From Gammaproteobacteria bacterium (GTDB lineage: Bacteria > Pseudomonadota > Gammaproteobacteria > SZUA-152): 64,000 nt of DNA. The stretch spans positions 27,420 through 91,419 of the forward strand of contig DROS01000062.1 in assembly GCA_011321815.1 (NCBI GenBank), in the 5' to 3' direction. A program made the position numbers and the translations under genes. How positions within the stretch are numbered: the stretch's first letter is position 1; every line of letters starts with the position of its first letter. This document shows positions 8,252-60,371 of the stretch, in pieces. The notes beneath the pieces were generated by a model. The model had not been told where the DNA came from. It did not search any database and saw only the letters and a program-made list of their open reading frames with translations.

Positions 8252-8281
8252 TTAATGCTGCTCACAAGTGAGCAGCATTAA
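8252..8281 (-). terminator. rho-independent terminator downstream of hcp
   Basis: Perfect 14 bp inverted repeat TTAATGCTGCTCAC..GTGAGCAGCATTAA, 14 nt after the hcp stop, followed on the minus strand by a U-rich stretch. Confidence 0.6.
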
Positions 8282-8294
8282 CGTCGGTGGTTCT

Positions 8295-8777: not shown

Positions 8778-9315
8778 TTTTACTTTCCTCTCTCCATCCT
8801 GTTTAAACAAAAAATACCCGTAAATCGACTTGCAATAATAGGGTAGTTGTTAGCGCTGGACAACCAATATTCTGTTGCAAACCGCATGTTTTCAAGCGTT
8901 TATACTGAGTCGCCTAACATAGTTTATCATTTTGTGCTCTGCCCATCTCGTCTTCTCGCCAAACCGAACATGACCCTGAGCAATCCTGGCATTTTAGAAC
9001 GAGTATACATACCCTTTCCAGCAGCGACACGCATGATACCGCTTCATTGTAATGAAGTTTCCGAATATTTATGTGACATATTCACACAAGGCTGTATTTT
9101 TCTTTATTTTCAACTAGAACAATGGGTTAAATTGCATTTTATGGCCAACTCGCCACTACACACACGCTCAATGTTGGAAAAACGGTCGCTATTTGTTAAC
9201 CAAACGCATTCGATATACCGTTTCTGCTCAGGTGACGTGAATGTAAATGGGTGGTTTTTACAGTACCGCCGTCAGGCAAACCTAAACACAAACTGAACGG
9301 CAGCGGCGCATTTGC

Positions 9316-35996: not shown

Positions 35997-37247
35997 TTAT
36001 TGGAGGTTGGGCAATGTGTCCCATAAGGCATCGAAGCGGTCCTGAAACGCACCGGCAACCACAGTATTATCAAGAAGTACGCTCAGTTCATGAGTGTATG
36101 CGAACGAGGTACGGGTCCAGTTGTGGCTCCCGACCACACACACTTTCCGGTCGACAACCAGCACCTTGGAGTGTAACAGCGTTTCTTTGGTATCCAGCTT
36201 AACCTGCACCGCGCCTGCCTGTAGGCGTTTAACAAGCGCCCGGTTGATTAATGCGCTTTTGTAGGGTACGCCGTCATCATCCTGATCCAGGATCACACTA
36301 ACCTCGACACCCGGGCGATTGGCGGCCGCCTCAAGCGCTTCCACAAGGGGTAATGGTGCACGCCCGGCCTCACCATCGCTCGCCGACCCCAGAAACACCA
36401 TCAGACTGACCGACGTCGTTGCCGCCTCAATCGCGGCTTTGGTGGCTTCGACATAGGCATCATTCACCAACAGAGCGCCTGTGGTTTTTTGGGTCGAGGC
36501 CAATAATTTTTGCCGGAGCTCGTGGCGGTTCAACCAACGCACTGCCTCGCTGGCCAAAGAACCGGCTGCGCCCGACACCGATACTTCTGCACGCTCAGTA
36601 ACAAATGCGATGAAGGCCGAAAAGCGTTCGTATGATCCTGCGCCAGCTGCGGGCAGACGGCGCTCAATGGCATTCGCATCACCAAAAACAAAAGACACAT
36701 CCGACGTTTCAAACAATACCAGGGCACGGGGAATGCCCGGCATCGACGCGAATGCCCACATCGCCGGCGAAACCAGGACAGCGCTAGGCTCATCCAGATA
36801 GCTCGTGTCCTGTAGCTGCTCAACACGCTCGGAACCAATGCCCCGAATCGCTCGCAGGGCCGCCAAATCACGGACCGGGGGACGCATCGCCAGACGTTGA
36901 CGGACATCGGTGGCAAGCTCGGCGCCAATGCCGGGCAGGGATTCAAGCTCTTGCTGTGTGGCGCTGCGCAAGCCTACCTGCGCGCCACTTCTTGAGGATA
37001 CGGGAAACTGATGCGCCGCCGCCATGACTAACCAGTCTTCCAGGTGAGCGACCGTCCGGGCCAAAAAATAGCGCTGAGCACGCTCGGGTTCCAACGGTAC
37101 ATCCGGAACCAGATGCGGTTCAACAAAACGGGCAAGCCTCACCAGCTGGCCGGCAAGGTCAGCCTGCTGCTGTTCAGTCCACGGCGAAGCAAGCCCGGCC
37201 GACCATTCACCAATACGCCCACGGGCGGTGACTTTATCGAGCGACAT
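35997..37247 (-). CDS. PLD-family protein: N-terminal tandem helix-hairpin-helix (ComEA-like) module plus C-terminal HKD domain
   Basis: HhH signatures LESLPGIGAELATDV and LRAIRGIGSERVEQL. C-terminal HxKx4D LHSKVLVVD…GSHNWT. Overlaps the upstream HKD gene by 14 nt in a different frame. Confidence 0.6.
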   Translation of the reverse strand: MSLDKVTARGRIGEWSAGLASPWTEQQQADLAGQLVRLARFVEPHLVPDVPLEPERAQRYFLARTVAHLEDWLVMAAAHQFPVSSRSGAQVGLRSATQQELESLPGIGAELATDVRQRLAMRPPVRDLAALRAIRGIGSERVEQLQDTSYLDEPSAVLVSPAMWAFASMPGIPRALVLFETSDVSFVFGDANAIERRLPAAGAGSYERFSAFIAFVTERAEVSVSGAAGSLASEAVRWLNRHELRQKLLASTQKTTGALLVNDAYVEATKAAIEAATTSVSLMVFLGSASDGEAGRAPLPLVEALEAAANRPGVEVSVILDQDDDGVPYKSALINRALVKRLQAGAVQVKLDTKETLLHSKVLVVDRKVCVVGSHNWTRTSFAYTHELSVLLDNTVVAGAFQDRFDALWDTLPNLQ

Positions 37248-37755
37248 TTTTTGGCAGCCCCTTTCCGTTATCCCATAGCGTCAAAAACTGCGCGGCAAGT
37301 TCATGAACCGCACTGCCGGTCAGCAAAACTGCATCTTCGATGTTTGCGGTGAACGCATCATCGGTCCAGTTCTGACTGCCCAGCACTGCTGTATCATCGA
37401 AAATGGCAAATTTCGCGTGCGATCCGTTTCGTTCTGCATCCGTCGAAAATATACGCCGCTGGGGAACACCTGCTCCTGCGAGATATAACCCGCTGGCAAG
37501 GTTTGCAACAGCAATATTTTGCGTCCGCACATGCCCTGTCATCAATACACGCACATCCACGCCACACTGCCGCCGTTCAATAAGCGCCGTGGTAAGCTCA
37601 AGAACCAAACCTTCGAGATCCTGACCGGGGCGGATGTCATAAATAAACAGCGATGCCCAGATACGTCGTTTCGCTGCCTCAACACTGGCAAGCGTGACAT
37701 CAAAATAGTCACGATCGTCAATGCGCACAGCCTGTGAATCTGTGAACGTAGTCAT
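37234..37755 (-). CDS. PLD-family single-HKD protein (first half of a split two-HKD enzyme)
   Basis: HxKx4D HAKFAIFDD…GSQNWT. The fold-start IWASLFIYD is colinear with the C-terminal HKD repeat of the downstream gene. Confidence 0.6.
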   Translation of the reverse strand: MTTFTDSQAVRIDDRDYFDVTLASVEAAKRRIWASLFIYDIRPGQDLEGLVLELTTALIERRQCGVDVRVLMTGHVRTQNIAVANLASGLYLAGAGVPQRRIFSTDAERNGSHAKFAIFDDTAVLGSQNWTDDAFTANIEDAVLLTGSAVHELAAQFLTLWDNGKGLPKNVAR

Positions 37756-38048
37756 GAAGTTCCTTCGTATTCGTCCAGCTCGGCAATTCGTCGGCGGATT
37801 TGCTCAATGCGGTTCTGAAAAACCAGATCGTTTTCCCGTGACACCGCCATCTCACGCATCAGGCGCTGCTGAAGTTTAAAACGCCGGTTCGGGTCCTGTT
37901 CGTTTCCTTCAAGCTCGATACTCATGCGAGTCATCACCATTGCGCTTGCACGGCTTGCCGCGCGATAGGCATGGTACAGGCGTTCAAGTTTCAGCGCACC
38001 GATGCGCGCCTTGACAGCTTCATCTCGGGTCATCATCCCCAGGGCCAC
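37752..38048 (-). CDS. hypothetical small helical protein (98 aa), operon member
   Basis: 4 nt ATGA overlap with the downstream HKD gene. Charged helical composition. Confidence 0.4.
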   Translation of the reverse strand: MALGMMTRDEAVKARIGALKLERLYHAYRAASRASAMVMTRMSIELEGNEQDPNRRFKLQQRLMREMAVSRENDLVFQNRIEQIRRRIAELDEYEGTS

Positions 38049-38320
38049 TCCAGTTTCACGCCGGGACCATCGTTCCAGTCCGGCGTCGCTCTCCCACCAC
38101 CGGGCAAATCAACGCCAGGCACTTCGAAATCGTCGAACAAACCGCCATCTGCGTCATCAGGCGCCGGGTCCCAAAAGTCATCCGGCAACCCCCCATCATC
38201 ATCCCAGTCGTCAAAATCATCCGGTACATCCAGATCAATATCATCATCTTTCAACCAGTCGTCATCGCACACCTCGCATTCGAGGCATTCTGAAAAACAA
38301 CCCAGGTTTGGATAAGACAT
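38033..38320 (-). CDS. hypothetical poly-acidic protein with N-terminal Cys4 cluster and DD[FW] repeats
   Basis: CFSECLECEVC followed by DDDWLKDDDIDLDVPDDFDDWDDDGGLPDDFWDPAPDDADGGLFDDFEVP. Estimated pI about 3. Confidence 0.45.
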   Translation of the reverse strand: MSYPNLGCFSECLECEVCDDDWLKDDDIDLDVPDDFDDWDDDGGLPDDFWDPAPDDADGGLFDDFEVPGVDLPGGGRATPDWNDGPGVKLEWPWG

Positions 38321-38322
38321 GG

Positions 38323-38601
38323 CTATTCGCTAAAGCCGAGTTCGGCCAGACTGGAATCCACAAACATCGTGAGTTCCTGTTGCGTGTACACCGATTGATA
38401 CAGAAGCCGCAGGCGTTTGATTTCACTCGGTGGATCATCAGGTGAAGCTTTGTTAATCGCACCCAGCGCCTCGGCCTTGATGCGGGCAAGGCTACCGCTG
38501 GCAGCAAGCCGACGCTGAATAAGCGATGCCTGTCGCGCCGCCAGCTGCCGCGACATCGGAATGGGTTGTAGGGTCAAGGTCTCTTTGAACACCAAGGGCA
38601 T
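38323..38601 (-). CDS. hypothetical small protein (92 aa), first gene of operon
   Basis: ORF with a 2 nt gap to the next gene. No motif recognised. Confidence 0.35.
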   Translation of the reverse strand: MPLVFKETLTLQPIPMSRQLAARQASLIQRRLAASGSLARIKAEALGAINKASPDDPPSEIKRLRLLYQSVYTQQELTMFVDSSLAELGFSE

Positions 38602-38919
38602 GCTCTAACTCCATGTTGCGTGTCATGACGACAATAAAAGCACTTTTCCAAAAAGTCCATACCTGACTCGTTTTTCTTTTCAATTCCCGGGACACCAAAG
38701 GTTTATTGCAGACATATACCCGTAGCGTTTGGGATTCAGGTCTCATTGCACGCCCTGTTTCCGCCATGGCCACGCTGTTGTCCTTGCCATAGAATAACGA
38801 TGGCGCGTCATGTCGCCTCGCCATGAAGAAAATATGACGCACACTTAAACTGAAATCCCAAGCGCCACAGGTAGTATAAACCCTGAAAGCCGGGTCATCC
38901 TTCAACCATAAACAAATAA

Positions 38920-38943
38920 GGCGAACCCCAAATGGGGTCCGCC
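38920..38943 (-). terminator. rho-independent terminator after nirK
   Basis: GGCGAACCCC-AAAT-GGGGTCCGCC hairpin, about 50 nt after the nirK stop, followed on the minus strand by UUAUUUGUUUAU. Confidence 0.6.
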
Positions 38944-38991
38944 TTACAAGGCTCAACCATAAAACAGCAGGTTGATAAATCAATACATTCT

Positions 38992-39948
38992 TTATTTATC
39001 CACAGCGCGCGGCAGAATGTTGTCACCCTTGCCCGCCTTGGGATCAGCATCCGGGCTGTTAATCAGCACAGTGATGGCGCCACGAAGAGCAGCACTCATG
39101 GTGTGGTCAACAATGGCATTGGCAGTATTTCTGCCTTCCGGCGATACGATATCCACAGCCACGGCTTCAGAAACTGCGACACCATAAGTGGCAATATCAT
39201 AAAGCGTATTTTTAGGGCTGCCATTGATGTAGACACGATCCCAGATACCCGCAATAGGATGTAAGGCAACAGGCTCATTGATGTTGGCATTCACAAAATA
39301 AAAGCGCACACGTTCGCCTGGCTTGGAGGCCAGGGCCAGAGAAGCAGCCGGATCATGCACGGGATCATAATGGAACATACGGCCATTGATCAAAGAGCCT
39401 TCCGAGCCTTCGTTACGCAGCATGGCTTTGTAGTTATCTGCATCAGGAAAATACTGGCCCTGAATCAACACATATTCACGATCAGGTTTCGGGAAATCCT
39501 TGGTGTAACCCTCTTTGGGGTCAACAATGATTACGCCATACATACCTCGTGCAATATGTTGCGCCATGACGCTGGCGCCACAATGGTACATCCACACGCC
39601 TGCCCGTTTGGCCTCAAACTTGAAATGCTTGGTTTGACCGGGTTTGACCGGGGCAAATTCTTCCAATACATGAACTTCTGCCGCATGGAAATCCATGGAA
39701 TGAGATTCTTTGTTGGTTTTGGGGTTAATAAGCTTGAAGTCGATAATATCGCCTTCAGTGACACGTACAGTTTTACCCGGAATCGCGCCATCAAAAGTCC
39801 AGGCCTTGTAGGTGGTGCCCTTGTTGTCGATTTGCACCGTGGTTTCTTTCGCGGTCATGGTGACATGTACCGTTTTGGCTTGTGCAATTTGCGTACCCAC
39901 CAGACCAATGGTCAATACCATGGCGCTTACGGATAGTTTGTTAAACAT
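38992..39948 (-). CDS. nirK: copper-containing nitrite reductase family protein (NirK-type two-cupredoxin-domain enzyme)
   Basis: Signal peptide. HSMDFHAA and MYHCG…H type-1/type-2 Cu ligand patterns. About 320 aa. Last gene of the MCO/cyt c/cyt c/NirK cluster. Confidence 0.7.
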   Translation of the reverse strand: MFNKLSVSAMVLTIGLVGTQIAQAKTVHVTMTAKETTVQIDNKGTTYKAWTFDGAIPGKTVRVTEGDIIDFKLINPKTNKESHSMDFHAAEVHVLEEFAPVKPGQTKHFKFEAKRAGVWMYHCGASVMAQHIARGMYGVIIVDPKEGYTKDFPKPDREYVLIQGQYFPDADNYKAMLRNEGSEGSLINGRMFHYDPVHDPAASLALASKPGERVRFYFVNANINEPVALHPIAGIWDRVYINGSPKNTLYDIATYGVAVSEAVAVDIVSPEGRNTANAIVDHTMSAALRGAITVLINSPDADPKAGKGDNILPRAVDK

Positions 39949-40082
39949 AGTTACTCTCCCTTTTTCGGTTAGAAAGCGTGGCTAAAATCAAAACCACTTT
40001 TAAAAAGCAGCATCCCGGCTAAAACACTCAATCCTCCATTAATAAAGTCACTCATGCACACTGCTGACTGTTTTATCAGTAA

Positions 40083-40433
40083 TCAGCCGCATTGGCAGAG
40101 TTTTCTCAGGTACTTGACCAGATCATGAATTTCATCATCGCTCAGGCTGTCGCCCCAGGGCGGCATCAGCACAGATTTGTCAATTGCCAACCCACCTTCT
40201 TTGATGACTTTAAAAAGATCGGCATCACTGCGCCCGCCCATGGCTTTGGCACTGGTATGATCGCGCGGTTGTACAGACATATCCTGCACATTGAGTCCCA
40301 TGCCATCACCTGACATTCCATGACATTGCCAGCAATAGTTTTTGTAATTGTCTTCCGCATCATCAGGCCATGCTGCTGTAGAAAAAATCAGTAGCATCAT
40401 AAAAAAAGCCGGGAATAATTTATTTTTTCTCAT
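40083..40433 (-). CDS. mono-heme c-type cytochrome (ncgC-like)
   Basis: Signal peptide from the internal Met MRKNKLFPAFFMMLLIFSTAAWP. Single CWQCH motif. Downstream Met ligand region. Confidence 0.6.
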   Translation of the reverse strand: MRKNKLFPAFFMMLLIFSTAAWPDDAEDNYKNYCWQCHGMSGDGMGLNVQDMSVQPRDHTSAKAMGGRSDADLFKVIKEGGLAIDKSVLMPPWGDSLSDDEIHDLVKYLRKLCQCG

Positions 40434-41109
40434 CCCAGTTCTCCTTTGCCAACGCTTGCAAATACTGCACAATTTTCTGAATATTGGGTTCTGCAACATG
40501 TTTATTGGGCATGGGTGTTTTCGGGTTCCACGCTTGTGGGCTGCTGATAAAGCTGACCAGATAATCCGCCTGATAACGTTTGGCGGCGGTGTAAACCTCC
40601 GGTCCGGAGAGACCACCGTAACCCGGCTCAATTTCGTGACAGGCCATACAGCCATTAAATTTGTCGAACACCATTTCACCGAAACTGACGGAAATACTGC
40701 CTCCCTTAAAAGCAGCGGCACCCATCATCTCCGCAGGCGCCTTGAGCTTCATCAAAGCCTCGGCAACATCCTCCGCTTTATCCGATGACAAGACTGGATG
40801 CGGTGTCAATGTTGCGGCATCAATCATGTCGCGTTTTTTACCTGGCTTGATGTGCTGAATATAGTGATAACCGGCAGGCCGGATGCGGCGTGGTTTAACC
40901 AACCATTTTTCCAGCCATTCACGATTGTATTTGGAACCGGCATAAAACAAATCAGGGCCTTTACGCTGCCATAATGCCTGCACACTTTGTGCGGCAGGAC
41001 CGCTGAGGTCATGACAATTCGCACAGCGTTTTTGCAGTATGGCCATGCCATCATCCGCCAGGGTTGCGCTGGCAAAAGTGAAACCAAGAAACAAAAGAAG
41101 ATATTTCAT
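40420..41109 (-). CDS. di-heme c-type cytochrome (ncgB-like, c4-like)
   Basis: Signal peptide. Two CxxCH motifs (CANCH, CMACH). Confidence 0.7.
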   Translation of the reverse strand: MKYLLLFLGFTFASATLADDGMAILQKRCANCHDLSGPAAQSVQALWQRKGPDLFYAGSKYNREWLEKWLVKPRRIRPAGYHYIQHIKPGKKRDMIDAATLTPHPVLSSDKAEDVAEALMKLKAPAEMMGAAAFKGGSISVSFGEMVFDKFNGCMACHEIEPGYGGLSGPEVYTAAKRYQADYLVSFISSPQAWNPKTPMPNKHVAEPNIQKIVQYLQALAKENWDEKK

Positions 41110-41118
41110 ATTATCCCC

Positions 41119-42201
41119 CTAGTCCCGATGCCGACGCCGTTCGCGGGTGAGAGGTGTGCCTTTGAAACGTGGGTTCTCGATCAGGCCATAACCTTTTTTC
41201 ATGGCTTCGCTGAAGAAGAAGTCCGGGTCATAGTCGATGTCTTTCCACACATACCAATCGTCCATGGGTGTGCCCTCGTATTCCATTACGGTAATGGGAC
41301 CTCCGGGAAATTTACCTCGCGCAGTCACATGCTTGTCCACATGGTCATGGAAGATAAAACGACCTTCATCGTGATTGGCTTTGATGATGACGTCATAACG
41401 CTCGCCAGGGCCGATGAGCACGGTATCGACAGAATAGGGATTGGACAGTGGCAGACCGTCTTTATGGGTAACGAGCATGTCGTGACCATGTGAATGCATG
41501 GCATGAATCGCACCGCCGGCACCCACAAAACGTACCCTCACCACATCCCCCGTTTTAAAGCGTATGGGCTGGGTCAGTGGAAAGGATTTGGCATTGACGG
41601 AAAAATAATCCTCAACATCATACGGAGTGGAGCCTTGACCGAATTTGTCAGCATTTTTACTCTCCCAGGTGGAAAGCATCATGATCACGTCTTTGGTCAC
41701 ACGTTTTTCGATCGGCAGCGGATTTTTGGGATCAACGATCAGCGGGCCCCACATACCGCGAATACCGACATGCTCGTTGACGTTGACATGACAGTGATAC
41801 CAAAGGCTGCCGATGCGGTCGGCCTTGAATTTATAAGTGTAAGTGTCACCGGGTTTGATCGGCTGCTGGGTGACACCGGGCACACCATCACTGCGCCAGC
41901 TTCCGGTCTGTAACACCCCATGCCAATGGATCGTGTGGGACAGTGTGGTGTTGTTGGTGACGTGGATAACCACATCATCACCTTCCTGAACATGGATCAG
42001 TGGGCCAGGTACCTGACCGTTAAAAGCAAAGACTTTGTATTTCAGATCAGGGGCTACATCAATCACCATCTCGTCAATGGACATGGACATCTCACGTTTG
42101 GCCGCTTGGACGAAGCTGCCAAACCCCAACGCAAAACTCACCAAAAGCAGGCAAATTGTCTGTCGGATTTTGCGTGGGCTCTTGAATCTCAAATCGCTCA
42201 T
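41119..42201 (-). CDS. two-domain multicopper oxidase (ncgA-like)
   Basis: HWHG, HCH, HAMHSHGHD and HDH copper-binding motifs. Signal peptide. A GGAGGGAG RBS precedes the MSDLRF start. Confidence 0.75.
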   Translation of the reverse strand: MSDLRFKSPRKIRQTICLLLVSFALGFGSFVQAAKREMSMSIDEMVIDVAPDLKYKVFAFNGQVPGPLIHVQEGDDVVIHVTNNTTLSHTIHWHGVLQTGSWRSDGVPGVTQQPIKPGDTYTYKFKADRIGSLWYHCHVNVNEHVGIRGMWGPLIVDPKNPLPIEKRVTKDVIMMLSTWESKNADKFGQGSTPYDVEDYFSVNAKSFPLTQPIRFKTGDVVRVRFVGAGGAIHAMHSHGHDMLVTHKDGLPLSNPYSVDTVLIGPGERYDVIIKANHDEGRFIFHDHVDKHVTARGKFPGGPITVMEYEGTPMDDWYVWKDIDYDPDFFFSEAMKKGYGLIENPRFKGTPLTRERRRHRD

Positions 42202-42253
42202 GGGTACTCCCTCCAAAATCAAATACCGTGTATATCCATCAACTTTCTCATAA

Positions 42254-42274
42254 ACATGTAGAACGAATACATTT
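42254..42274. promoter_or_regulatory. candidate operator palindrome upstream of the MCO-cytc-cytc-nirK operon (possible Rrf2/NsrR-type or other dimeric regulator site)
   Basis: ACATGTA-GAACGAA-TACATTT: a perfect ATGTA/TACAT inverted repeat with 7 bp spacer, about 55 nt upstream of the start codon in an AT-rich divergent promoter region shared with moaB. Confidence 0.3.
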
Positions 42275-42538
42275 TTAGATAATCAACAACCATTTGTCAA
42301 GCATGGATTTTTCATATATTTTTGGATTTCATCTAAGCAATTAATATAAATAGAAAATATCTTATAATTTGACATTTGCGATGGAGAATTCATATCCGCT
42401 ATCCACGCCCAAAAAGCGGATTGACGGCTTCCACCCCCTCGCCTTTCACAAATTCCCCGGCTGCGGATACAGCCGGTATAATCCCCTTGCACACAATGCC
42501 TTTGGCAAACGAATCCATTACTGAATGAGCAAAAATCA

Positions 42539-43069
42539 ATGAGCCTCTCGAAAAAACAACACGACTTTATCCCCCTCAACATTGCCATCCTCACCGTGTC
42601 TGACACTCGCACAGAAGCCGAAGACACCTCAGGCAAAGTGCTGGTCAGCCGGCTGGAGGAGGCGGGTCACCAACTGGCTGAAAAGAGCATAACCCCCGAC
42701 GATATTTATCAAATCCGCGCTGTTGTTTCGCGTTGGATCGCCGACCCTGAAATTCACGTCATAATCAGCACCGGCGGCACTGGTGTTACTGGCCGTGATG
42801 GTACGCCGGAAGCATTCCAGCCTCTGCTGGACAAAGAGATTGAAGGTTTTGGTGAGATGTTCCGGATGATTTCTTTTGGGGAGATTAAAACATCGGCATT
42901 GCAATCCCGCGCCCTGGCGGGAGTCAGCAATGGCACCTATCTGTTCTGCCTGCCCGGTTCTTCCGGCGCCTGCAAAACCGGCTGGGACAACATCATCAGG
43001 GATCAACTGGATCACCGCACCGTGCCCTGCAACCTGGCCATGTTGATTCCCCGATTGAAAGAATGCTGA
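42539..43069 (+). CDS. moaB: molybdenum cofactor biosynthesis protein B (MoaB/MogA family)
   Basis: …ISTGGTGVTGRDGTPEA… and GxSxG-free MogA-like fold signature. 176 aa. Confidence 0.75.
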   Translation: MSLSKKQHDFIPLNIAILTVSDTRTEAEDTSGKVLVSRLEEAGHQLAEKSITPDDIYQIRAVVSRWIADPEIHVIISTGGTGVTGRDGTPEAFQPLLDKEIEGFGEMFRMISFGEIKTSALQSRALAGVSNGTYLFCLPGSSGACKTGWDNIIRDQLDHRTVPCNLAMLIPRLKEC

Positions 43070-49939: not shown

Positions 49940-52672
49940 TTATCTTAAACCCGGTGGTTCCCCGCAAGTTTGTAATAAATATTTTGCGGTAAAATCTACC
50001 TCGTGCTCGATTTCGCGCACCAAATCGGCAAAATTTTCTGCAAAACCATTTTTTCTGGCCCGGTCAACAAGCGCATCACACATTTCCGATAGCTTCCGGG
50101 CACCGAGATTGGCGCTACTCCCCTTTAATGAATGAGCAGAAAACTCAATGTTATCCACATCAAGATCTTGAATGGCGATGCGCAACTCATCGAGCCGCTT
50201 GTCAGCACCATCAATAAATAACAGGACAATCTCGGCATACTGTTCTTCTGAAAGCACCGAAGCCAGGTCATTCAACAATTTAAAATCAAAATGTGTGGAT
50301 AAATTTACATCATCATCGTGAGCGCCCGTGAAACTGTCGTCCGTGACGGCAGGGCTAACCTCACTCTCGGCACCGCCACTGTCGATTTTGAACCTGGAAA
50401 AAACGTCACGCAGTGCTTTTATGCGTATGGGCTTGACCAAAAAATCGTCCATCCCTGAAGACAAACAGGCCTCACGGCCTGTATCCAGCGCATTTGCAGT
50501 CAGTGCAATAATCGGCGTGCGTTCCAGATTTTTTTCATACTCCAGGTTTCGCATCTTCATCGTGGCTTCAAACCCATCCATGACCGGCATCTGACAATCC
50601 ATTAAAACCACGTGATATTTCTTCGACTGAAATAACAAAAATGCCTGTAAACCATCATCAGCAACATCAACGCTATAGCCTTGCTTTTGCAGCAGTGCCA
50701 CCGAAATCTGTTGGTTTATCGCATTGTCCTCAACTAAAAGTACTGTCGTAACATCATTCTGCATTGAAGGGTATTGACATGTATCACCTCTATCGCCGGC
50801 GCCCCCCCTGTCCCGCAATAATGAAAAAATCTCAAACAATGCCGCACGCCGAAGCGGACGGCTTATACTCTCATCAAGTTGAAAAGTCCTGACCTTGTCT
50901 GTGCTATTGCTGTCCGAGAGCCGGAAAAGCCCGATATATTTTTTGGCGGCAACGACTTTTTTTCGTAAATTACAGGCATCAGTGATATTGCAGTCCAGCA
51001 ATGCATCAATATCCAGTATGGCAAAATCAGCTGAAGGAACGTCCTGGCCGGCAAAAGCATCACTCGTACAATCACTAGACTTCACCACGGTACAGCCCCA
51101 ATATTGAACAAGACTGGTTATTGCCTCCCGAACAACAGCACTTGGCACAAAAATATAAACGCTTAAGCCATGAAAATATCCCTTTTCCCGATGATTTACC
51201 GCTCTTCCCGAAGGGGCAAGCTTAACGGTAAACCAAAATGTACTGCCAATTCCTTCTATAGAATCAACCCCCATTTGCCCATCAAATAATTTCACCATTT
51301 GTTGACAGATTGACAACCCCAGACCAGTCCCACCATATTTCCGGGTGGTGGATTCATCGGCCTGCGTAAAAGTATTAAATATTAATTTTTTAGCGGAATC
51401 AGAAATACCAACACCGGTATCACGTATGATAAATTTAAGAAATCCACCCTCCTCTGAGGAGTAATTTTTATCGCATTCCAAGCCAATAAATATTTCACCG
51501 TTATCAGTGAATTTCATGGCATTACCAATCAGGTTGTTTAAAATCTGCCGTAATCTGGTCGGGTCACCAAGCACGTAGTCAGGAACATCATTATCAATAT
51601 GACAAATAACCTCGACACCCTTGTCCTGTATTTTTTTGGCGTATAGACCGACCACTTCCTCAAGCAAATGCCGCACATCAAAGGGAATAGACTCAAATTC
51701 AATTTTCCCTGCTTCAATTTTCGAGAAATCCAATACATCATTGATTACGGACAACAACGCTTCTGCCGAATTATAAGCCGTATCAACAAAATATTTTTGC
51801 TCAGAAACCAAACGGGTATCACGCAATAAATCCAACATACCCAATACCCCGGTCATAGGCGTCCGAATCTCATGACTCATATTGGCAAGAAAAGTTGATT
51901 TTGCTTTTGTTGAATCCTCGGCCTGCGAATACGCCAACGATAATTCGGTATTTTTTGCACTTAATTCCTGGCTCTTCTTTTTTACGTTCTGTGTTACTGC
52001 CCGCGCAATAGCAACACCTACCACCAGCGTAAAAACGCCTAGCAAAAGCAGCATCAGCCAAATAAACTGATAGTCATTTCTATTGCTTTGTACAGCGGTA
52101 TCAGTATATTGCTGCTGCAAATCGATTAATCCATCCAAAGTATCAAGCAATATTTTTTGTGCCTCAAGGCCTTCAGTTACCGCAACAGAGATAACATTAT
52201 CCGGTGTTTCCTGCATCAACAGCTCAGCAACCTTGCGGTTCTTCAGCTGTGCCTCATTTGCCGCCATTTCCAGGTGTTTATAAATTTCCTGTTCTTTTTC
52301 ATTTGCACCCAACTTAACCAGCTCTTCCCTGCGACTGCGATAATCACCAGCATATGAATAAAAACGTAACAGTTCCGCGTCACGGGAAAAATAATCATCC
52401 ATTGCCAACATTGTGTAAATGCTGATCGCTCTTTGCAGAATGGCATCGCGCATGGCAAAAGCCAATGCAACCTTTTTATTATGTACATCAACAATAGCCT
52501 CCATATTGGAATTAAATTCGTTTAACCGATACAAGCTCACTGAGGTAACCAGCAAAACAAGAACCAATATGGCGCTAAACCCCATACCCACCACATTTGA
52601 CAAACGACTATATTCTGTACGTTTTTTTTGCTTCTGATGAAAACGTTGCCACGGCGCTCGCATTACCGCCAC
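49940..52672 (-). CDS. hybrid sensor histidine kinase (periplasmic sensor, HisKA, HATPase_c, REC, Hpt)
   Basis: H-box [12 protein letters not shown]-boxes. Receiver [12 protein letters not shown]…[13 protein letters not shown]-terminal Hpt [11 protein letters not shown]. Confidence 0.85.
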
Positions 52673-52953
52673 CTCGAAGCGTAACTATCAGTTTTTAAAT
52701 AAACAGGCATGACACCGTGTTGGGATCGACCGCTGTTAGAATAACGGCACACCCCTGAAAAACAGGCCGACTTTAGTATTCTCTTATTATTCAAAGACAT
52801 ATAACCCACCATCAGTATCACTCTGTCAGTAAAATAGTGATTTTTTCGGGAAAACCCCTGAAGTTCCGATGCATTTTGCCGCTATTTTGCAGAGAAATCA
52901 TTACTTATGGATATCAATCTTCATGGGTTTCAGCACAGCTGGAAATTAAACAT

Positions 52954-54804
52954 ATGTGGAATAGGGTCAGGACGATTCCGCGACAACACCGCGTGCGTAA
53001 GATTAACGTCTTTGCAAAGGCATTAATGTGTGCCGCTTTTTTACTTCTTTCAACATTTAGTGTGGCAGCTGAAAACGCCACCATGCCAACAAAAACCGCC
53101 ACACCCATAAAAGATATACGAATTCTGATTGATATTTCAGGAAGTATGAAAAAAACGGATCCCAACAACCTTCGCCAACCTGCCGTCAAACTGTTTGCCA
53201 ACCTTTTACCAGAAAATATACTTTCCGGTGTGTGGACGTTCGGCAAGTGGGTCAACATGCTGGTTCCCCACGGTATGGCCGACTCAGCATGGAAAGCCAA
53301 TGTCCATACACAGGCACAAAATATCAATTCAACGGGTCTGTTTACCAATATTGAAGAAGCACTGCGGCGCGCAACCTGGGACTGGAAAGAATATGATCCC
53401 GCATATGAACGCTCGATGATTATTTTATCGGATGGAGTGGTCGATATATCAAAAAGCCCAGAAGAAAATAGAAACTCAAGATCAAGAATCCTAAAGGATA
53501 TACTGCCATCCCTCACCAATGCCAAAGTAACAATCCATACCATTGCCTTATCATCCTTATCCGATAAGGATTTATTACAACAGCTGTCCTTCGCCACTGG
53601 TGGTATATATGAAACCATTGAAACAACAACAGAATTGGATAAAACATTTATGCGCATATTTGATGTCGCAACACCACGGGATGAAATACCCCTTATTGAC
53701 AATCTGGTAAAAATTGATGAGAGCATCAAAGAAATAACATTTTTGATATTTCGTAAAGAAAAATCACCAAAAACCGTTATCATCGCCCCATCAGGCGGTA
53801 AATATACTAAAAACAGCGAAGGTGTTACCTGGCATTCTGAAAAACGATATGATTTGGTTACAATAAAAAACCCGGAAACAGGGACCTGGAGAATCAATGC
53901 AGACACTGACCCGGATAATCGGGTTATGGTGGTAACCGATTTACGGTTTATCACCAACCAGCTTCCTGACAACATCCTGTCAGGAGATAGAATCCCCTTT
54001 TATGCGCACCTGGAATCTGAACAGAAAATCATAAAACGCCGGGACTTTCTTCATTTTGTACGCATGTCCATCAGACACTTCAACGAAACAAAGAAAAAAA
54101 AACGCTCTGTTAAACTAAAAGATGATGGAATAGGCGTTGATGAATACAAAAGGGATGGGATTTATTCAGCAGAAATAAAAAAAACCAAAACCTTGGGAAA
54201 GCATACATTTGAGCTTCTCGTTAATGGAACCACATTTAAACGGAAAAATACAAAAATAATAAATATTGTTAAATATCCTGCAATTATCAACATAAACGAC
54301 ACGCCTGATGGTGATATCGCCATAAAAATTGTTCCTTACCAAGACCTGGTTGATACAGAATCATTACAAATTACCGCCATCCATCATCCACCTGTTAACG
54401 ATAGCGAAGAGTATCGCATTAAGAAAACAAATTTATCAGCGTGGAAAGCGACGATTCCAACAAATAATATTTCCGGAAACCACACAGTCACCATTGAGGT
54501 TATCGGCAAAAATAAAAGTGGTAAAACAATAAACTTCGTGACAGAGCCGGAAAGTATTTTTATTGGCGAAAAAAATCAGGGACATGAAAACAATAACCAC
54601 CATTCAGAAAAAAACCATGAAGAAAGTAATCACGAAGAATCTGACAATAAGGAAAATAAATCAACAACCTGGTTTGATGTAATTTTATCGATTGTTGGAT
54701 TTAACCTGGTTTTACTATTTTTCACATTTTCCTTATATAAACTATGGGGTAAGTATAAGCATAAATTGCTACCTCCACCTTTCGAGGAAATGATTAATGC
54801 CTAG
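52954..54804 (+). CDS. von Willebrand factor type A domain protein with signal peptide, His/Glu/Asn-rich linker and C-terminal membrane anchor
   Basis: VWA MIDAS-containing core IRILIDISGSMKKTD…VWTFGKW…IILSDGVVD. C-terminal TM WFDVILSIVGFNLVLLFFTF. Confidence 0.7.
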   Translation: MWNRVRTIPRQHRVRKINVFAKALMCAAFLLLSTFSVAAENATMPTKTATPIKDIRILIDISGSMKKTDPNNLRQPAVKLFANLLPENILSGVWTFGKWVNMLVPHGMADSAWKANVHTQAQNINSTGLFTNIEEALRRATWDWKEYDPAYERSMIILSDGVVDISKSPEENRNSRSRILKDILPSLTNAKVTIHTIALSSLSDKDLLQQLSFATGGIYETIETTTELDKTFMRIFDVATPRDEIPLIDNLVKIDESIKEITFLIFRKEKSPKTVIIAPSGGKYTKNSEGVTWHSEKRYDLVTIKNPETGTWRINADTDPDNRVMVVTDLRFITNQLPDNILSGDRIPFYAHLESEQKIIKRRDFLHFVRMSIRHFNETKKKKRSVKLKDDGIGVDEYKRDGIYSAEIKKTKTLGKHTFELLVNGTTFKRKNTKIINIVKYPAIININDTPDGDIAIKIVPYQDLVDTESLQITAIHHPPVNDSEEYRIKKTNLSAWKATIPTNNISGNHTVTIEVIGKNKSGKTINFVTEPESIFIGEKNQGHENNNHHSEKNHEESNHEESDNKENKSTTWFDVILSIVGFNLVLLFFTFSLYKLWGKYKHKLLPPPFEEMINA

Positions 54805-55495
54805 CCCTGGATTAAGTACAATAATGATTTTGGGTGAAATAGTTTTAATAGAAACCATTTTAATTATTTTATACCTGGTATATCTATACTTGAAATCAAA
54901 AAAGAAAATATTAAAACTTAACGCTCTTCTTGAATCCTTTCTGAAAGATGAGAAAAACAGACTGGATATTCTCTCCTCAATGTTTCATAAATCTGAACTT
55001 ATTGATGAGGAAAAATATACCGCTGCACTAAAAAGTATCATCGAAAAAGAAAACCTGTTTTATAAATACCTGATTACCGTTTTATATCACAACGACTTAA
55101 AATCACTGGATTCCCTTTCTTCAGAAGTTCAGGAAATAATCAAACCCTGTGTAGAATTGATCCCCATTAACAAAGAAATGGATGCAGAGGAAGCCGAAGA
55201 CTCTCCCGAGGTTAATGTGGATGATGTAATGGATGAATTATTATCCGATGATGAACCAAAAATTGAAAGTGATCCCGCACTCGATTTAAGTGAATCCGTC
55301 GACGATACACTCATTACAGAAAATGAACCATTAATTGAAACAACGCTGGAAACGGATGAAATTGCAGAAATTCCCAGTGATCTGTTAAACAGTGCTGATT
55401 TGCCAATTGAAAATGAAATAGAAGCAAAAGACAGCACCGAAGAAGACACGTTTGACGACAGCAATAAGCCCAGTGAAAGTCATCAGGAAAAATAA
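54797..55495 (+). CDS. hypothetical membrane-anchored protein with highly acidic C-terminal half
   Basis: N-terminal TM helix. D/E-rich tail. 8 nt overlap with the VWA gene. Confidence 0.45.
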   Translation: MPSPGLSTIMILGEIVLIETILIILYLVYLYLKSKKKILKLNALLESFLKDEKNRLDILSSMFHKSELIDEEKYTAALKSIIEKENLFYKYLITVLYHNDLKSLDSLSSEVQEIIKPCVELIPINKEMDAEEAEDSPEVNVDDVMDELLSDDEPKIESDPALDLSESVDDTLITENEPLIETTLETDEIAEIPSDLLNSADLPIENEIEAKDSTEEDTFDDSNKPSESHQEK

Positions 55496-55506
55496 CTGTG
55501 TAAATT

Positions 55507-57147
55507 TTGACCAAAATGAAACTTTGGAACTTAAAAAACAAGTACATCCTGATTGTGGATGATTTTGCTGGCATGCGTACAATGTTACGCAACATGCTCT
55601 CCCCTTATCGTCCGGAACATATTTCGGAGGCCAACTCAGGAGAAGAGGCATTGAGCGCTATTCGGGAGCATGATTTTGACATCATTCTTTGTGATTATAA
55701 TCTTGGCCCGGGAAAAGACGGGCAGCAAATATTGGAGGAAATCAAAGAGCGGGAACTGCTCCCCTACTCTTCAATATATATTATGACAACCGCAGAAAAT
55801 ACTTCTGAAATGGTTATGGGGGCTGTGGAATATTCCCCGGATGATTATTTATCAAAACCATTTACAAAAGAAGTATTAATATCACGACTCAAAAAGCTCC
55901 TTAAAAGAAAATCAAGCCTTAAAAAAATATCCAACGCCACCCAACAACGTGATTATGAGTCTGCAATCACTTTTTGTGATGAACAACTTTCCGGGACGCC
56001 CAACAACCGTTTTGAATTACTAAAAATAAAAGCGGAACTTTTATTACGCATCAACGACTATGATGCTGTTGAAAAACTTGTCAAACCTGTCCTTGAGGAG
56101 CGTGAAATACCCTGGGCGTTGCTTTATCTGGGGCAGGCACATTATTACCGGGGAAATTATGATGAGGCAAAATTTATTTTTGAGGATTTAATCGAGGACT
56201 ACCCCAATTATCTATTTTCACATGACTGGCTTGCCAAACTTCATAGAACCCAAAAAAATTACAACGAAGCCCAAAAAATCCTGGAAAAAGCCACAATAAA
56301 ATCCCCTAAGGCCATAAAACGCCAACAACTTCTTGCTGAAGTTTCATTTGAAAATGAGGATCTTGATACATCTGAAAAATCATATAAACGGGTGACAAGA
56401 ACGGGGAAAAATTCATATTACCTGAACCCGGATGATTATTCCGGCCTTGCTGAAGTTTATTTGAAAAAAGGGATGGTTTCTGATGCATTAAACACAATTT
56501 CCGATATGAGAAAAGAATTCAGTGATGCCGCCCCATCAAAAAACATGAAATCACATATCAATGAGGCTTTTTTATATGATCGACTAGAACGGAAAAAAGA
56601 GGCCAATGGCCGCCTTGATAAAATAATTTCGATTTTCTCAAAGGACCCGGGGACGGTGACCAGTGTTGACGCTATCGAGCTGGCAAAACTTTGTTATTCT
56701 TACGAAAGAAATGATGATGGAAACAGGTTTATAAAATATACCATTAAAAATAATCATGACAACCAGGAAATCATTGATGGAATCATCGGAATCCTCACTG
56801 ATATTGGCTTCTCTAATGCAGAGATTAATGCATTGTTAAAATCACGGGATGAGGTCATCGAAATCAACAATCGCGGGGTAAAACTGGCTACCACAGGTAA
56901 AATTGCCGAATCCATATCCTTGTTCGTTGAGGCGGCAACTGCAATGCCGGAAAATCACGTCATCAATCTGAATACGGCACAATCATTGATCATGCACATG
57001 AATAAATCCGGTGCAACAGAAAAACTAATGGCGGAAACAAAAAAATATCTGGACAAGGTAAAATTTACAGGAAAACCAAGTGATAAATATAAAATATTGA
57101 CGGCTTCCTACCAAAACCTTCTGGAAACACTCGGCCTGCAATCCTGA
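55507..57147 (+). CDS. response regulator receiver domain protein fused to TPR repeats
   Basis: REC core ILIVDDFAGMR…ILCDYNLGPGKDG…YLSKP. Then multiple TPR-like 34-residue repeats. Confidence 0.75.
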   Translation: MTKMKLWNLKNKYILIVDDFAGMRTMLRNMLSPYRPEHISEANSGEEALSAIREHDFDIILCDYNLGPGKDGQQILEEIKERELLPYSSIYIMTTAENTSEMVMGAVEYSPDDYLSKPFTKEVLISRLKKLLKRKSSLKKISNATQQRDYESAITFCDEQLSGTPNNRFELLKIKAELLLRINDYDAVEKLVKPVLEEREIPWALLYLGQAHYYRGNYDEAKFIFEDLIEDYPNYLFSHDWLAKLHRTQKNYNEAQKILEKATIKSPKAIKRQQLLAEVSFENEDLDTSEKSYKRVTRTGKNSYYLNPDDYSGLAEVYLKKGMVSDALNTISDMRKEFSDAAPSKNMKSHINEAFLYDRLERKKEANGRLDKIISIFSKDPGTVTSVDAIELAKLCYSYERNDDGNRFIKYTIKNNHDNQEIIDGIIGILTDIGFSNAEINALLKSRDEVIEINNRGVKLATTGKIAESISLFVEAATAMPENHVINLNTAQSLIMHMNKSGATEKLMAETKKYLDKVKFTGKPSDKYKILTASYQNLLETLGLQS

Positions 57148-57153
57148 TCGTAA

Positions 57154-57870
57154 TTGAAAATCACCATGAAGACCAATATCAAAAAACTGGATTTTTCCAC
57201 TGTATTGGCGGGAAGCGTCCATGATATGAAAAATTCACTGGCAATGCTGCTGGGGTCACTTGCCGATATTTTATCTGAATGCCAAACTGATACCTGTTCA
57301 ATAAAAAAAGAACTTTCACGAATCCAGCATGAGGGTCAACGGGTTAATCGTGACTTAATTCAATTATTAACACTCTATAAAATAGACCAGTCTCAGTATT
57401 ATCTTAATATTGCGGAGGTTTATATTTACGATTACCTGGAAGAAATAATCCTGGAGCATGAGTCTCTACTAAGTGAACGGGGGATTGATATCTCCCTTCA
57501 GTGCGACACTGCTTTACATGGTTTTTTTGATGCTGAACTTGTTTCGGGTGTACTAAAAACAATCATAAACAACGCTTGCCAGTATACTAATGATAAAATA
57601 CTGGTTAGCGCCGAATCCGTAGACGGCTTTATAAAATTAACCGTTGCGGACAATGGAAAAGGTTATCCGGCGCACATGTTATTTGAACAGACAACGTACA
57701 AAACCACCAGTAATTTTGGCACAGGCAGTACTGGCCTTGGGCTTTATTTTTCTTCGCAAGTTGCGGAATTGCATAAAAATAAAAAAAAATGTGGCTATAT
57801 ACAGATTACCAATACCACTGACTCCAGCTCTGCACTCAAAGGTGGCTGCTTTTCGATTTTTCTGCCATAA
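57154..57870 (+). CDS. soluble histidine-kinase-like protein (H-box plus HATPase_c, no TM or sensor)
   Basis: SVHDMKNSLAML H-box. N, G1 (DNGKGYP) and G2 (GTGSTGLGL) boxes. Confidence 0.65.
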   Translation: MKITMKTNIKKLDFSTVLAGSVHDMKNSLAMLLGSLADILSECQTDTCSIKKELSRIQHEGQRVNRDLIQLLTLYKIDQSQYYLNIAEVYIYDYLEEIILEHESLLSERGIDISLQCDTALHGFFDAELVSGVLKTIINNACQYTNDKILVSAESVDGFIKLTVADNGKGYPAHMLFEQTTYKTTSNFGTGSTGLGLYFSSQVAELHKNKKKCGYIQITNTTDSSSALKGGCFSIFLP

Positions 57871-57956
57871 TTTCCTGTCGCATATCTCGTCATGGAATAC
57901 GATGTCTTCTTTGATTTTATATTTGGCCTGATTATAAAAATAAGCACACTCATAGC

Positions 57957-60371
57957 ATGGTATTTGAGTTGCGTTCATTGCCCAAAAAAATGGCTCAATT
58001 CTCTCAAAACAAACAGGTTAATAATGCCAAGCCGCTTATCATGGTGGGGTTTTCCACCATATTGATACTGATGATTTTATTGATTGGGTTTTGGAGCAAA
58101 AGCCTTTCTGATAATAAAAATCTGCTATTCAGCATGGCAAATATAACGCTTGAAAGCGGATTGATTACAAAACTGTTCAACACAGTGCATCAACAAACAA
58201 CTGTACTGCACCAGATAAATACGGCACAAAACGCTAAAAAGAAAAAAGACTATTACGATCAATATCTGGCCTTTGGAGAAATATTATCCGATACCTATGC
58301 ACAGCTGGCTGAATTTGAATTTACCGATGATGCCGCACAATCCTGGGATTTAATACAACAACAATTATCGCAATGTCGCAATATTGAAAAGGTATCCAGA
58401 AATTTTTATCTGAGTGGGGAGCATGAAAAGTCTTTCGAATACCTGACAGACAATATTTCACCAATACAGGGTCGTTTGATGAATGAATTGTCGACCCTGC
58501 TCAATAAAAATCTGTTAAATGGCAGCGAAAGTAATGTCGATGACATTATCAATGAAGCAACACACAAAATTTCCACCACCTATTTTTTTGTTTATTTATT
58601 AGGCGGAATCTCCATTTTTCTCGGTATTTTTACTATTTATATCCTCAAGCGTAAAGAAAGCACCGAGGAGGCACTGGTTGATCAGGGCGAGAGAATTCAA
58701 TGGTTATATGAAGCAACATCAATATCCGGCATCAGCCTTGATGATCGCATTACCGAAACCCTGAAGTTAGGTTGCCGCGTACTGGGTATGGAAGTCGGGA
58801 AACTGGGCCGCCAGTTTCCCGAAAAAAATGAATCGGTATTCCTGAACACTGTTGCTCCTCCCGAACTTCCTGCAAAACGTGGATTGGTTCTCCCTCTTGA
58901 TAAAACGTTTTGCAATATTACTTTTTCAACAGATGGGCCAATTGCCATACAACACGTCAGCAAGTCCTCTTATCAGGATCACCCTGCCGCTGAATTTCTT
59001 GGTATGGAGGCCTATATTGGCACCACCATCTATGTGCACGATAAAAAATTCGGGACCGTTAATTTTTCCAACAGACAACCCATGGAAAAGCCCTTTACAC
59101 AAACGGACATGGATTTTGTCAACCTGTTGGGAAAATGGATCAGCGTGACCATGGAGCAGATTATTATCGAGGATGAGTTACAGCAATCCAAGGATGAGGC
59201 AGAAGCGGCAAACCATGCAAAAACTGCTTTTCTGGCAAACATGAGTCATGAAATCCGCACACCACTAACAGCAATTCTGGGTTATTCTGAAATGCTGTTG
59301 GATGATGATCAATCGCAGGAAGAAATCGAACATGAAATTGATTCCATCGTTACCAGCGGTAAACATCTACAGCAAATTATCAACGATATTCTCGATTTAT
59401 CAAAAATTGAAGCCGGACAGCTCATCGTTGAACACCGGGAGGTTTCTCCCATTCTTTTCATGAATGAACTTGATGCCATTCTGGGCTCACAAGTAAGTGA
59501 AAAAGGCTTAACATTTGACATGGAATACCAGTTCCCTATTCCTGGAATGATTAGCACAGACCCTACCCGTTTAAAACAGATTCTCATCAATCTCTGCAGC
59601 AATGCCATAAAGTTTACCAAGGAAGGCAGCATTGGTATTTCCGTCCAATATCTTGCGGATTCGAATCAATTACAAATCAGCGTTACCGATACCGGCATTG
59701 GCATCTCTGAGGAAGAGCAGAAAAAGATTTTTCGCCCCTTTACTCAGGCCGATGACTCGACGACACGCATTTACGGTGGAAGTGGGCTTGGTTTATGTAT
59801 TTCCAGACAATTGGCCAAAACGCTGGGCGGTGATATTACTGTGTCCAGCGAAAAAGGAAAAGGCAGCAAATTTACCACAACCATTGATGTCTGTATTGCG
59901 CAAGACAAGCTGGAAATGATTCATGAAGCCCCCGTTAAAGAAACCCTTCTTAATACCAAACCGGCCCATATCCATTTGAATGGGCACGTATTATTGGTGG
60001 AAGACAACAGCGAAAACCAACAACTCATTACAAAATTGATTCGTCAAACCGGTCTGACCGTCGAAATTGCTGAAAATGGAAAAATTGGTGTGGAAAAAGC
60101 GCTATCCGGCAACTACAACCTTGTACTGATGGATATGCAAATGCCCGTAATGAGCGGTTTGGAGGCCATACAAAAATTGCGCGGCAGCGGGTATAAAATA
60201 CCTATCATCAGTCTGACGGCCAATGCCATACAGGAAGATAAAACCAGTTGCTGCGCTGCCGGTGCGAATGACTATCTCACAAAACCTCTGGATTTCAGTC
60301 ATTTTTATACGGTACTTTCTGCTCACCTGGCTACCGGTAAACAGCAAAATTCAAACAATTCCGTAACTTGA
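57957..60371 (+). CDS. hybrid sensor histidine kinase (TM, GAF, HisKA, HATPase_c, REC)
   Basis: H-box [12 protein letters not shown]-boxes. Receiver VLLVEDNSENQQ…VLMDMQMPVMSG. Confidence 0.85.
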   Translation: MVFELRSLPKKMAQFSQNKQVNNAKPLIMVGFSTILILMILLIGFWSKSLSDNKNLLFSMANITLESGLITKLFNTVHQQTTVLHQINTAQNAKKKKDYYDQYLAFGEILSDTYAQLAEFEFTDDAAQSWDLIQQQLSQCRNIEKVSRNFYLSGEHEKSFEYLTDNISPIQGRLMNELSTLLNKNLLNGSESNVDDIINEATHKISTTYFFVYLLGGISIFLGIFTIYILKRKESTEEALVDQGERIQWLYEATSISGISLDDRITETLKLGCRVLGMEVGKLGRQFPEKNESVFLNTVAPPELPAKRGLVLPLDKTFCNITFSTDGPIAIQHVSKSSYQDHPAAEFLGMEAYIGTTIYVHDKKFGTVNFSNRQPMEKPFTQTDMDFVNLLGKWISVTMEQIIIEDELQQSKDEAEAANHAKTAFLANMSHEIRTPLTAILGYSEMLLDDDQSQEEIEHEIDSIVTSGKHLQQIINDILDLSKIEAGQLIVEHREVSPILFMNELDAILGSQVSEKGLTFDMEYQFPIPGMISTDPTRLKQILINLCSNAIKFTKEGSIGISVQYLADSNQLQISVTDTGIGISEEEQKKIFRPFTQADDSTTRIYGGSGLGLCISRQLAKTLGGDITVSSEKGKGSKFTTTIDVCIAQDKLEMIHEAPVKETLLNTKPAHIHLNGHVLLVEDNSENQQLITKLIRQTGLTVEIAENGKIGVEKALSGNYNLVLMDMQMPVMSGLEAIQKLRGSGYKIPIISLTANAIQEDKTSCCAAGANDYLTKPLDFSHFYTVLSAHLATGKQQNSNNSVT

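Follow-up and report, generated by a model that had tools for sequence, protein, structure and literature searches.

The copper nitrite reductase gene nirK of Nitrosomonas europaea, a betaproteobacterial ammonia oxidizer, closes a four-gene cluster, ncgA-ncgB-ncgC-nirK, which together with a divergent nsrR gene makes up the NE0924-NE0928 region. In this organism, ncgABC is said to be required for NirK-dependent nitrite tolerance, a result attributed to work by Beaumont from 2005. The cluster is described in the work of Beaumont et al. (2004 and 2005) as relayed by three later papers (PMC1274295, PMC3603346 and PMC4940428), and a function in nitrite detoxification and tolerance is cited for it in PMC3603346. 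Regulation by NsrR of nirK is documented in N. europaea, where it was shown experimentally, in Neisseria and in Chromobacterium violaceum (PMC1274295), and the NsrR-binding motif has been published as gATGyAT-N5-ATrCATc (Rodionov et al. 2005, PMC1274295). Occurrence of the cluster outside nitrifiers was noted already in 2013, when a Zetaproteobacteria copy from the Loihi hydrothermal iron mat was discussed as serving either to detoxify nitrite or to couple its reduction to Fe(II) (Singer et al. 2013, PMC3603346). Here, a cluster of the same kind is described from a hydrothermal-vent metagenome-assembled genome (MAG) assigned to a Gammaproteobacteria bacterium, on a 64-kb stretch (the window) that lies within a 120-kb contig (k127_712074 of ERZ940665/SRR4453772; NCBI proteins HHI93788-HHI93800). 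Its four minus-strand genes most likely form an ncgA-ncgB-ncgC-nirK operon controlled by an NsrR-type regulator and dedicated to the handling of nitrite and nitric oxide (NO) in this vent gammaproteobacterium.

A reference locus of the N. europaea type (L083) was found via P0121, by a full-length match to the 4KNS sequence as rebuilt from a printed alignment, and its NirK is ~100% identical to Protein Data Bank (PDB) entry 4KNS. In this locus, a divergent Rrf2 gene is followed by genes for a multicopper oxidase (MCO), a di-haem cytochrome c, a mono-haem cytochrome c and NirK. In the window, these four genes recur on one strand and in unchanged order, and blastp comparisons identify all four products as full-length homologues of the reference proteins (58% identity over 337 amino acids (aa) for NcgA, 46% over 226 aa for NcgB, 51% over 112 aa for NcgC and 57% over 300 aa for NirK, with E-values from 1e-36 to 9e-140). 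These matches bear out the ncgABC-nirK identity that an earlier note on this DNA had proposed. Both clusters also share the structural subfamilies of their copper proteins, the two-domain MCO represented by 3G5W and the NirK represented by 4KNS, and in both, a TTGACA promoter is accompanied by an NsrR-type box located at the -10 hexamer or shortly downstream. The differences concern regulation and spacing: nsrR lies divergently 233 nt upstream in N. europaea, whereas the window has no nsrR; N. europaea displays two clear boxes, in contrast to one strong and one doubtful weak box here; its box is located ~5 nt downstream of the -10 hexamer, whereas that of the window overlaps this hexamer; and the ncgC-nirK spacer measures 18 nt in N. 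europaea but 134 nt in the window. The hosts differ as well, one being a betaproteobacterial ammonia oxidizer and the other a vent gammaproteobacterium. The window cluster is one more well-preserved example of a known operon with a known type of operator, and the comparative result presented below, conservation of the box upstream of ncgA, is more useful than the single new example.

A direct reading of the minus strand over 38700-42700 confirmed the gene coordinates. From promoter to terminator, the genes are ncgA (41119-42201), encoding a periplasmic two-domain MCO of 360 aa; ncgB (40420-41109), a di-haem cytochrome c of 229 aa; ncgC (40083-40433), a mono-haem class I cytochrome c of 116 aa; and nirK (38992-39948), a copper nitrite reductase of N. 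europaea type of 318 aa. A gap of 9 nt separates ncgA from ncgB, the start of ncgC overlaps ncgB by 14 nt, and a spacer of 134 nt (39949-40082) stands between ncgC and nirK. The start codon of ncgA is the ATG at 42201, preceded by the Shine-Dalgarno sequence GGAGGGAG (42207-42214), which was read directly and is kept in L001-L004, four of the closest relatives; the TTG at 42222 returned by the open reading frame (ORF) tool is a less probable start. The same four products, among them an MCO of 360 aa, are annotated on this contig in an independent public gene call. Downstream of nirK, an intrinsic terminator (38906-38947, minus strand) consists of a hairpin (38947-38916) with a stem of 14 pairs, 8 of them G-C, and a 4-nt loop, followed by the T-rich tail TTGTTTAT. 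The four tightly packed minus-strand genes, their spacings and the terminator had all been put forward in the earlier note; the first two are exact on the minus-strand reading, and the third was found as described.

The spacer between ncgC and nirK holds no NsrR box, nor do the corresponding gaps of 61 related loci (0/62), and a consensus scan of this strand returned no promoter-like or terminator-like match within it. No significant RNA fold was detected there either (z-score -0.59). Across the five closest relatives, the mean column identity of the spacer is 81%, and the stretch GGATGCTGCTTTTTT is part of what is conserved. Because two of the genes overlap, a single promoter and operator precede them, the spacer lacks any recognizable box, promoter, terminator or structure, and one terminator ends the array, ncgABC and nirK are predicted to be co-transcribed.

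The copper and haem ligands of the four products are complete. NcgA contains the Pfam domains Cu-oxidase_3, Cu-oxidase_2 and Cu-oxidase, and its strongest PDB match is mgLAC (2ZWN; 4.7e-178, ~80% identity over 325 residues), followed by the N. europaea MCO (3G5W; 9e-126). All of its copper motifs are present, namely HTIHWHG, HCHVNVNEHVGIRGM (HCH-x5-H-x5-M), HAMHSHGH and HDH, and residues H89, H92, H94, H136, C137, H138, H144, M150, H233, H236, H238, H240, H285 and H287 are invariant in 80 related loci. By analogy with MCOs in general, the histidines are presumably ligands of the type 1 and trinuclear copper centres. NcgB displays two haem-binding motifs, CANCH at residue 29 and CMACH at residue 154, within a Cytochrom_C domain, and NcgC a single one, CWQCH at residue 34, within a Cytochrome_CBB3 domain.

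NirK consists of cupredoxin/MCO domains according to Pfam and matches N. europaea NirK best in the PDB (4KNS; 4.6e-104), with Geobacillus NirK next. Its type 1 copper ligands are H83, C123, H131 and M136, its type 2 ligands H88, H122 and H282, and its catalytic residues D86 and H230. Residues H83, D86, H88, H122, C123, H131, M136, H230 and I232 do not vary across 60 orthologues; H282, which falls outside this count, is assigned by its alignment with a histidine of 4KNS and of Geobacillus NirK. The earlier note had singled out the MCO copper ligands and the type 2 copper ligands of NirK as the residues on which its reading depended, and all of them are in place. The protein scores below the curated cut-off of TIGR02376 (170 versus 296 bits), as expected for a member of the divergent N. 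europaea-type subfamily typified by 4KNS. Despite this score, it is predicted to work like NirK, because its catalytic residues are complete. All four products begin with typical N-terminal signal peptides, as read from their sequences.

The best promoter-like match on the minus strand of the region upstream of ncgA combines a -35 hexamer TTGACA (42295-42300) with a -10 hexamer AAAAAT (42271-42276) at a spacing of 18 nt, or TAAAAA with a 17-nt spacer. The TTGACA-18-AAAAAT arrangement agrees with the consensus at 10 of 12 positions, and the predicted -35 hexamer is kept in the closest orthologous promoters (L001-L005). The left arm of a palindrome overlaps the -10 hexamer. On the minus strand, this NsrR-type operator reads AAAATGTAT-TCGTT-CTACATGTT (42275 to 42253) and would extend from roughly -12 to +11, and it is placed where a bound repressor would be expected to block the predicted promoter. 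The earlier note had described the palindrome as seen on the plus strand, ACATGTA-GAACGAA-TACATTT at 42254-42274; it is there, and its arms reach further than was then described, TAAAAATGTA-TTCGTTC-TACATGTTTA, with 10-nt arms complementary at 9 of 10 positions. The pattern AANATGYAT-N6-TRCATNTT occurs once in the 64 kb, against 0.09 occurrences expected from shuffled sequences. With a position weight matrix (PWM) built from 46 orthologous sites, which themselves score from 15.0 to 33.4 bits, the operator is the top site of the window at 20.7 bits, the runner-up reaching 14.1. The comparison with known NsrR sites that the earlier note had left to be made is favourable: aATGTAT-TCGTT-cTACATg agrees with the published consensus at 11 of 12 core positions and shares with the operators of beta- and gammaproteobacteria the 6-5-6 palindromic layout ATGyAT-N5-ATrCAT, A/T-rich flanks and a location before an NO-related operon (PMC1274295).

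A weak second NsrR-like site (42300-42322), of uncertain standing, abuts the -35 hexamer. Its score of 13.2 bits is below that of the weakest training site (15.0), and two boxes are found in N. europaea and in many other loci. It may represent a second operator or, instead, an A-rich UP-like element. The A-rich sequence AAAAATCCATGC just upstream of TTGACA is kept in L001 and L004. In the 5′ untranslated region (UTR) of ncgA, the motif GTGTATAT, to which the earlier note had drawn attention, is indeed present at 42228-42235 but is not kept in the five closest orthologous promoters, and for that reason it is probably a chance occurrence. It lies between two elements that are kept in L001-L004, TTGA(C/T) at ~42243-42247 and GGTATTTGA at ~42219-42227. 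The same part of the UTR (42222-42250) contains TTGATGGATATACA, an FNR-like match with 2 mismatches.

Conservation of the operator was surveyed in 71 usable ncgA upstream regions drawn from 80 related genome loci, which were examined with 8 kb flanks. At a threshold of at least 14 of 16 positions of AANATGYAT-N5-ATRCATNTT, a box is present upstream of ncgA in 47 of the 71 orthologous promoters, compared with a mean of 0.1 in dinucleotide shuffles and with none in 323 control segments of matched composition taken from these loci. The distance of the box from ncgA varies from -25 to -335, and the host loci differ widely in G+C content and taxonomy. Of the sites that score 18 bits or more, 66 precede ncgA and 4 fall at other positions in 1.05 Mb; one of the 4 stands immediately 5′ of an nsrR-like gene. 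Together, the orthologous sites give the consensus AAGATGTATTTAAAATACATCTT. Among the five nearest relatives (L001-L005; 82-92% MCO identity), the arms of the palindrome are kept whereas the central 5-7 bases differ in every sequence, which is the pattern expected of a site for a dimeric regulator; the palindrome thus recurs in orthologous promoters, where the earlier note had suggested that it be sought. Part of this survey is circular, as the first six sequences and the already known consensus had guided the design of the pattern, and the PWM was trained on sites that were later counted. This circularity does not affect the shuffles, the control segments, the ncgC-nirK gaps or the N. europaea locus, which is independent. 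In the latter, the intergenic region displays two NsrR-type boxes just downstream of a TTGACA-N17-TAAAAT promoter, beside the divergent Rrf2 gene. Since the box is conserved in Gammaproteobacteria, Gallionellaceae, Nitrotoga, Methylococcaceae and Zetaproteobacteria, control of the N. europaea type is probably the rule for the ncgABC cassette, and its conservation upstream of ncgA implies that NcgA belongs to the NO-stress response.

NsrR-like genes accompany part of these loci, being found within the 8 kb flanks in 16 of the 80; in ~11 of the 16, the gene lies directly upstream of ncgA in divergent orientation. The encoded proteins share 42-58% identity with the NsrR of N. europaea type, contain the three-cysteine motif and score above the Rrf2 superfamily threshold.

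Several points weigh against an NsrR-controlled operon. The earlier note had proposed looking for nsrR or another Rrf2 gene, and tblastn with two probes, an E. coli NsrR and the N. europaea-type NsrR, detects none in the 64-kb window; because of this, the repressor would have to act in trans, and both its identity and its presence are inferred, as is the NO responsiveness of the operon. At related clusters, the neighbouring Rrf2 proteins stay under the equivalog cut-off of NsrR in NCBIfam and obtain almost as high a score with RirA, so that calling them NsrR relies on genomic context and on their resemblance to the protein of N. europaea. The promoter and the start site are predictions made by consensus matching only. 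The operator departs from the published motif at one core position, where the right arm opens with C in place of A, and its flanks are a...g and not g...c (PMC1274295); this variant box is common to the close relatives L001-L004. Finally, the 134-nt spacer, which far exceeds the 18 nt of N. europaea in length, could contain an unrecognized internal promoter or processing site.

Taken with the operator survey, the arrangement of the locus suggests how such an operon would work. A single sigma-70-type promoter (TTGACA-N17/18-TAAAAAT) would drive the synthesis of a transcript of ~3.3 kb that ends at the hairpin after nirK. The 23-bp NsrR-type palindrome would cover both the -10 hexamer and the likely start site, and an Rrf2-family [4Fe-4S] repressor of NsrR type, encoded outside the window, would bind it. 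As long as NO is absent, holo-NsrR would block RNA polymerase and keep the operon off, whereas NO, or nitrite by way of NO, would nitrosylate the cluster, release the repressor and switch the operon on. All four products would act in the periplasm. NirK, with its type 1 and type 2 copper centres, would reduce nitrite to NO, electrons most likely being passed to it by one or both of the c-type cytochromes NcgB and NcgC, a path that we infer. NcgA would couple the reduction of O2 to the oxidation of a donor substrate. The role of the operon would accordingly be nitrite and NO handling, either as detoxification or as auxiliary denitrification, as in N. europaea.

A different function, unlikely but deserving consideration, is that of an energy-conserving respiratory denitrification module, coupled for example to the oxidation of sulfur, iron or hydrogen at the vent, and not concerned with nitrite or NO tolerance. 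NirK, with all catalytic residues present, looks like a bona fide NO-forming nitrite reductase, the same cluster occurs in chemolithotrophs of low-oxygen habitats, and coupling of nitrite reduction to Fe(II) was raised by Singer et al. in 2013 for the Zetaproteobacteria copy (PMC3603346). However, no nar, nap, nor or nos gene was found among the 40 Pfam-annotated ORFs of the window, and the N. europaea cluster serves nitrite tolerance, as cited in PMC3603346. The operator also resembles an NO-stress repressor box and not an FNR or DNR box, which is the pattern of a detoxification regulon (PMC1274295), although this argument is not decisive because Neisseria uses NsrR for true denitrification genes.

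Nitrite and NO handling under NsrR-type control further presupposes that the palindrome is recognized by a protein of the NsrR type. Binding by another regulator, whether a RirA- or IscR-type Rrf2 protein, FNR/DNR/NnrR, NorR, Fur or NarL/P, or an AT-rich promoter free of any regulator, is improbable. The lack of a detectable nsrR in the window, the nearly equal RirA scores of Rrf2 proteins at related loci and the location of an AT-rich palindrome over a -10 hexamer, where AT-richness is expected anyway, would all be accommodated by it. Yet, under the mismatch limits applied, the 339-nt upstream region contains no match for NnrR, sigma-54, the NorR core or Fur, and its other matches are weak: FNR/DNR with 2 of 10 mismatches and none at an activating position, IscR with 8 of 25 mismatches, and NarL/P with 3 of 12 mismatches to an approximate pattern. 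Conserved arms around a drifting spacer are the signature of a dimer site, unlike that of a -10 element; the same 23-bp box recurs in 47 of 71 diverse loci at variable distances and is almost absent elsewhere; and the consensus that the orthologous sites define agrees with the NsrR motif of the literature (PMC1274295). An activation box of FNR/DNR/NnrR type (TTGAT-N4-ATCAA or TTGCG-N4-CGCAA near -41.5) was sought in particular and rejected: two FNR-like matches with 2 mismatches each are found, one between the -35 and -10 hexamers and the other in the 5′ UTR, and there is no NnrR match.

The ncgABC-nirK gene order is present in 61 of the 80 related loci, from many lineages that comprise Chromatiales and other gammaproteobacterial MAGs, Zetaproteobacteria, Gallionella, Nitrotoga, Methylococcaceae and others. 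That NcgA is a laccase or a cuprous or other metal oxidase, engaged in copper or iron homeostasis or in phenol oxidation and placed beside nirK by chance, is very improbable: its nearest solved relative, mgLAC (~80% identical), has been described as a two-domain laccase, one database source calls a homologue 'manganese oxidase' and NCBIfam returns sub-threshold CopA and laccase matches, but the same two cytochromes follow the MCO in 77 of the 80 loci (the other three being cut by contig ends), nirK follows in 61, the MCO gene is promoter-proximal behind an NsrR box, and a Mariprofundus MCO belongs to an nsrR-linked cluster that also encodes truncated globins and a reductase, a kind of gene set already known for NO detoxification (PMC1274295). 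The copper-binding motifs of mgLAC are the same as those of the window NcgA. Unlike the latter, which is encoded by the first gene of a nirK operon, mgLAC was studied as an isolated laccase without genomic context. Given the ~80% identity between the two proteins, mgLAC is probably an NcgA orthologue from an NO-regulated nirK operon, and the window operon would be the likely native context of this structurally characterized 'metagenome laccase'.

Because the cluster is spread over iron oxidizers, nitrite oxidizers, methanotrophs and Chromatiales, it is not diagnostic of lifestyle. The earlier note had seen in it a hint of a nitrifier, methanotroph or sulfur oxidizer, which is compatible with this distribution but uninformative; no amo, hao, pmo or sox gene occurs among the 40 annotated ORFs of the window. 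Zetaproteobacteria resemble the window in having the cluster outside nitrifiers, as described for Loihi (PMC3603346), but most of the loci retrieved here (L010-L019 and L024, with L020 similar) differ from it in carrying ncgABC, usually with an upstream NsrR-type box, and no adjacent nirK. In the Mariprofundus MAG (L020:5423-10144), a divergent nsrR-like gene, two truncated globins and a Fer2/FAD/NAD reductase precede ncgA, which is followed by a fused ncgBC encoding a 359-aa tri-haem cytochrome; this cluster contains no nirK. The nsrR-linked, nirK-free locus lends modest support to, and thereby suggests, an NO-detoxifying role of ncgABC independent of NirK. Extending this, we tentatively propose, as a speculative possibility, that ncgABC is a widespread, horizontally mobile, NsrR-controlled and NirK-independent periplasmic NO module, in which mgLAC and NcgA would oxidize nitrogen species (NO, HNO or NH2OH) with O2, with NcgB and NcgC as redox partners. 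If true, this would provide a physiological role for a large family of two-domain MCOs (>3000 homologues) from vent and low-oxygen chemolithotrophs.

The surroundings of the operon were annotated with Pfam for the same 40 ORFs. The G+C content is ~0.50 across the cluster (38001-42000), in agreement with the value of about 50% given in the earlier note, and ranges from 0.36 to 0.56 along the window. Housekeeping genes include pheST, thrS, infC, lysS, prfB, recJ and queA, and several hybrid sensor kinases are also encoded. The neighbour upstream of ncgA is a divergent moaB-like gene. Directly 3′ of the nirK terminator, the minus strand of 35997-38601 encodes three small proteins of 92, 95 and 94 aa, for which no family match was found, the middle one being extremely acidic and Asp-rich, and then two proteins with PLD-like nuclease domains (173 and 416 aa) that show weak DrmC-like PADLOC matches. 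This group may represent a defence or toxin-like module.

Further away, type VI secretion genes occupy 4353-8810, with Hcp at 8295-8810, VgrG at 5921-7900 and proteins of the DUF6484 and DUF2169 families, followed by a ShlB/FhaC-type two-partner-secretion transporter at 9316-11205. The segment 22488-29317 has a lower G+C content (0.41-0.44) and encodes one class 3 lipase besides several ORFs of 200-317 aa that match nothing in Pfam, and it may be a horizontally acquired island. At the start of the window (1-4163), a partial gene for a di-haem cytochrome c peroxidase (CCP/MauG) lies beside one for a DAHL-PAS-GAF hybrid histidine kinase, and a second set of hybrid kinases and response regulators is encoded at 49940-60371, in a region of 36-44% G+C.

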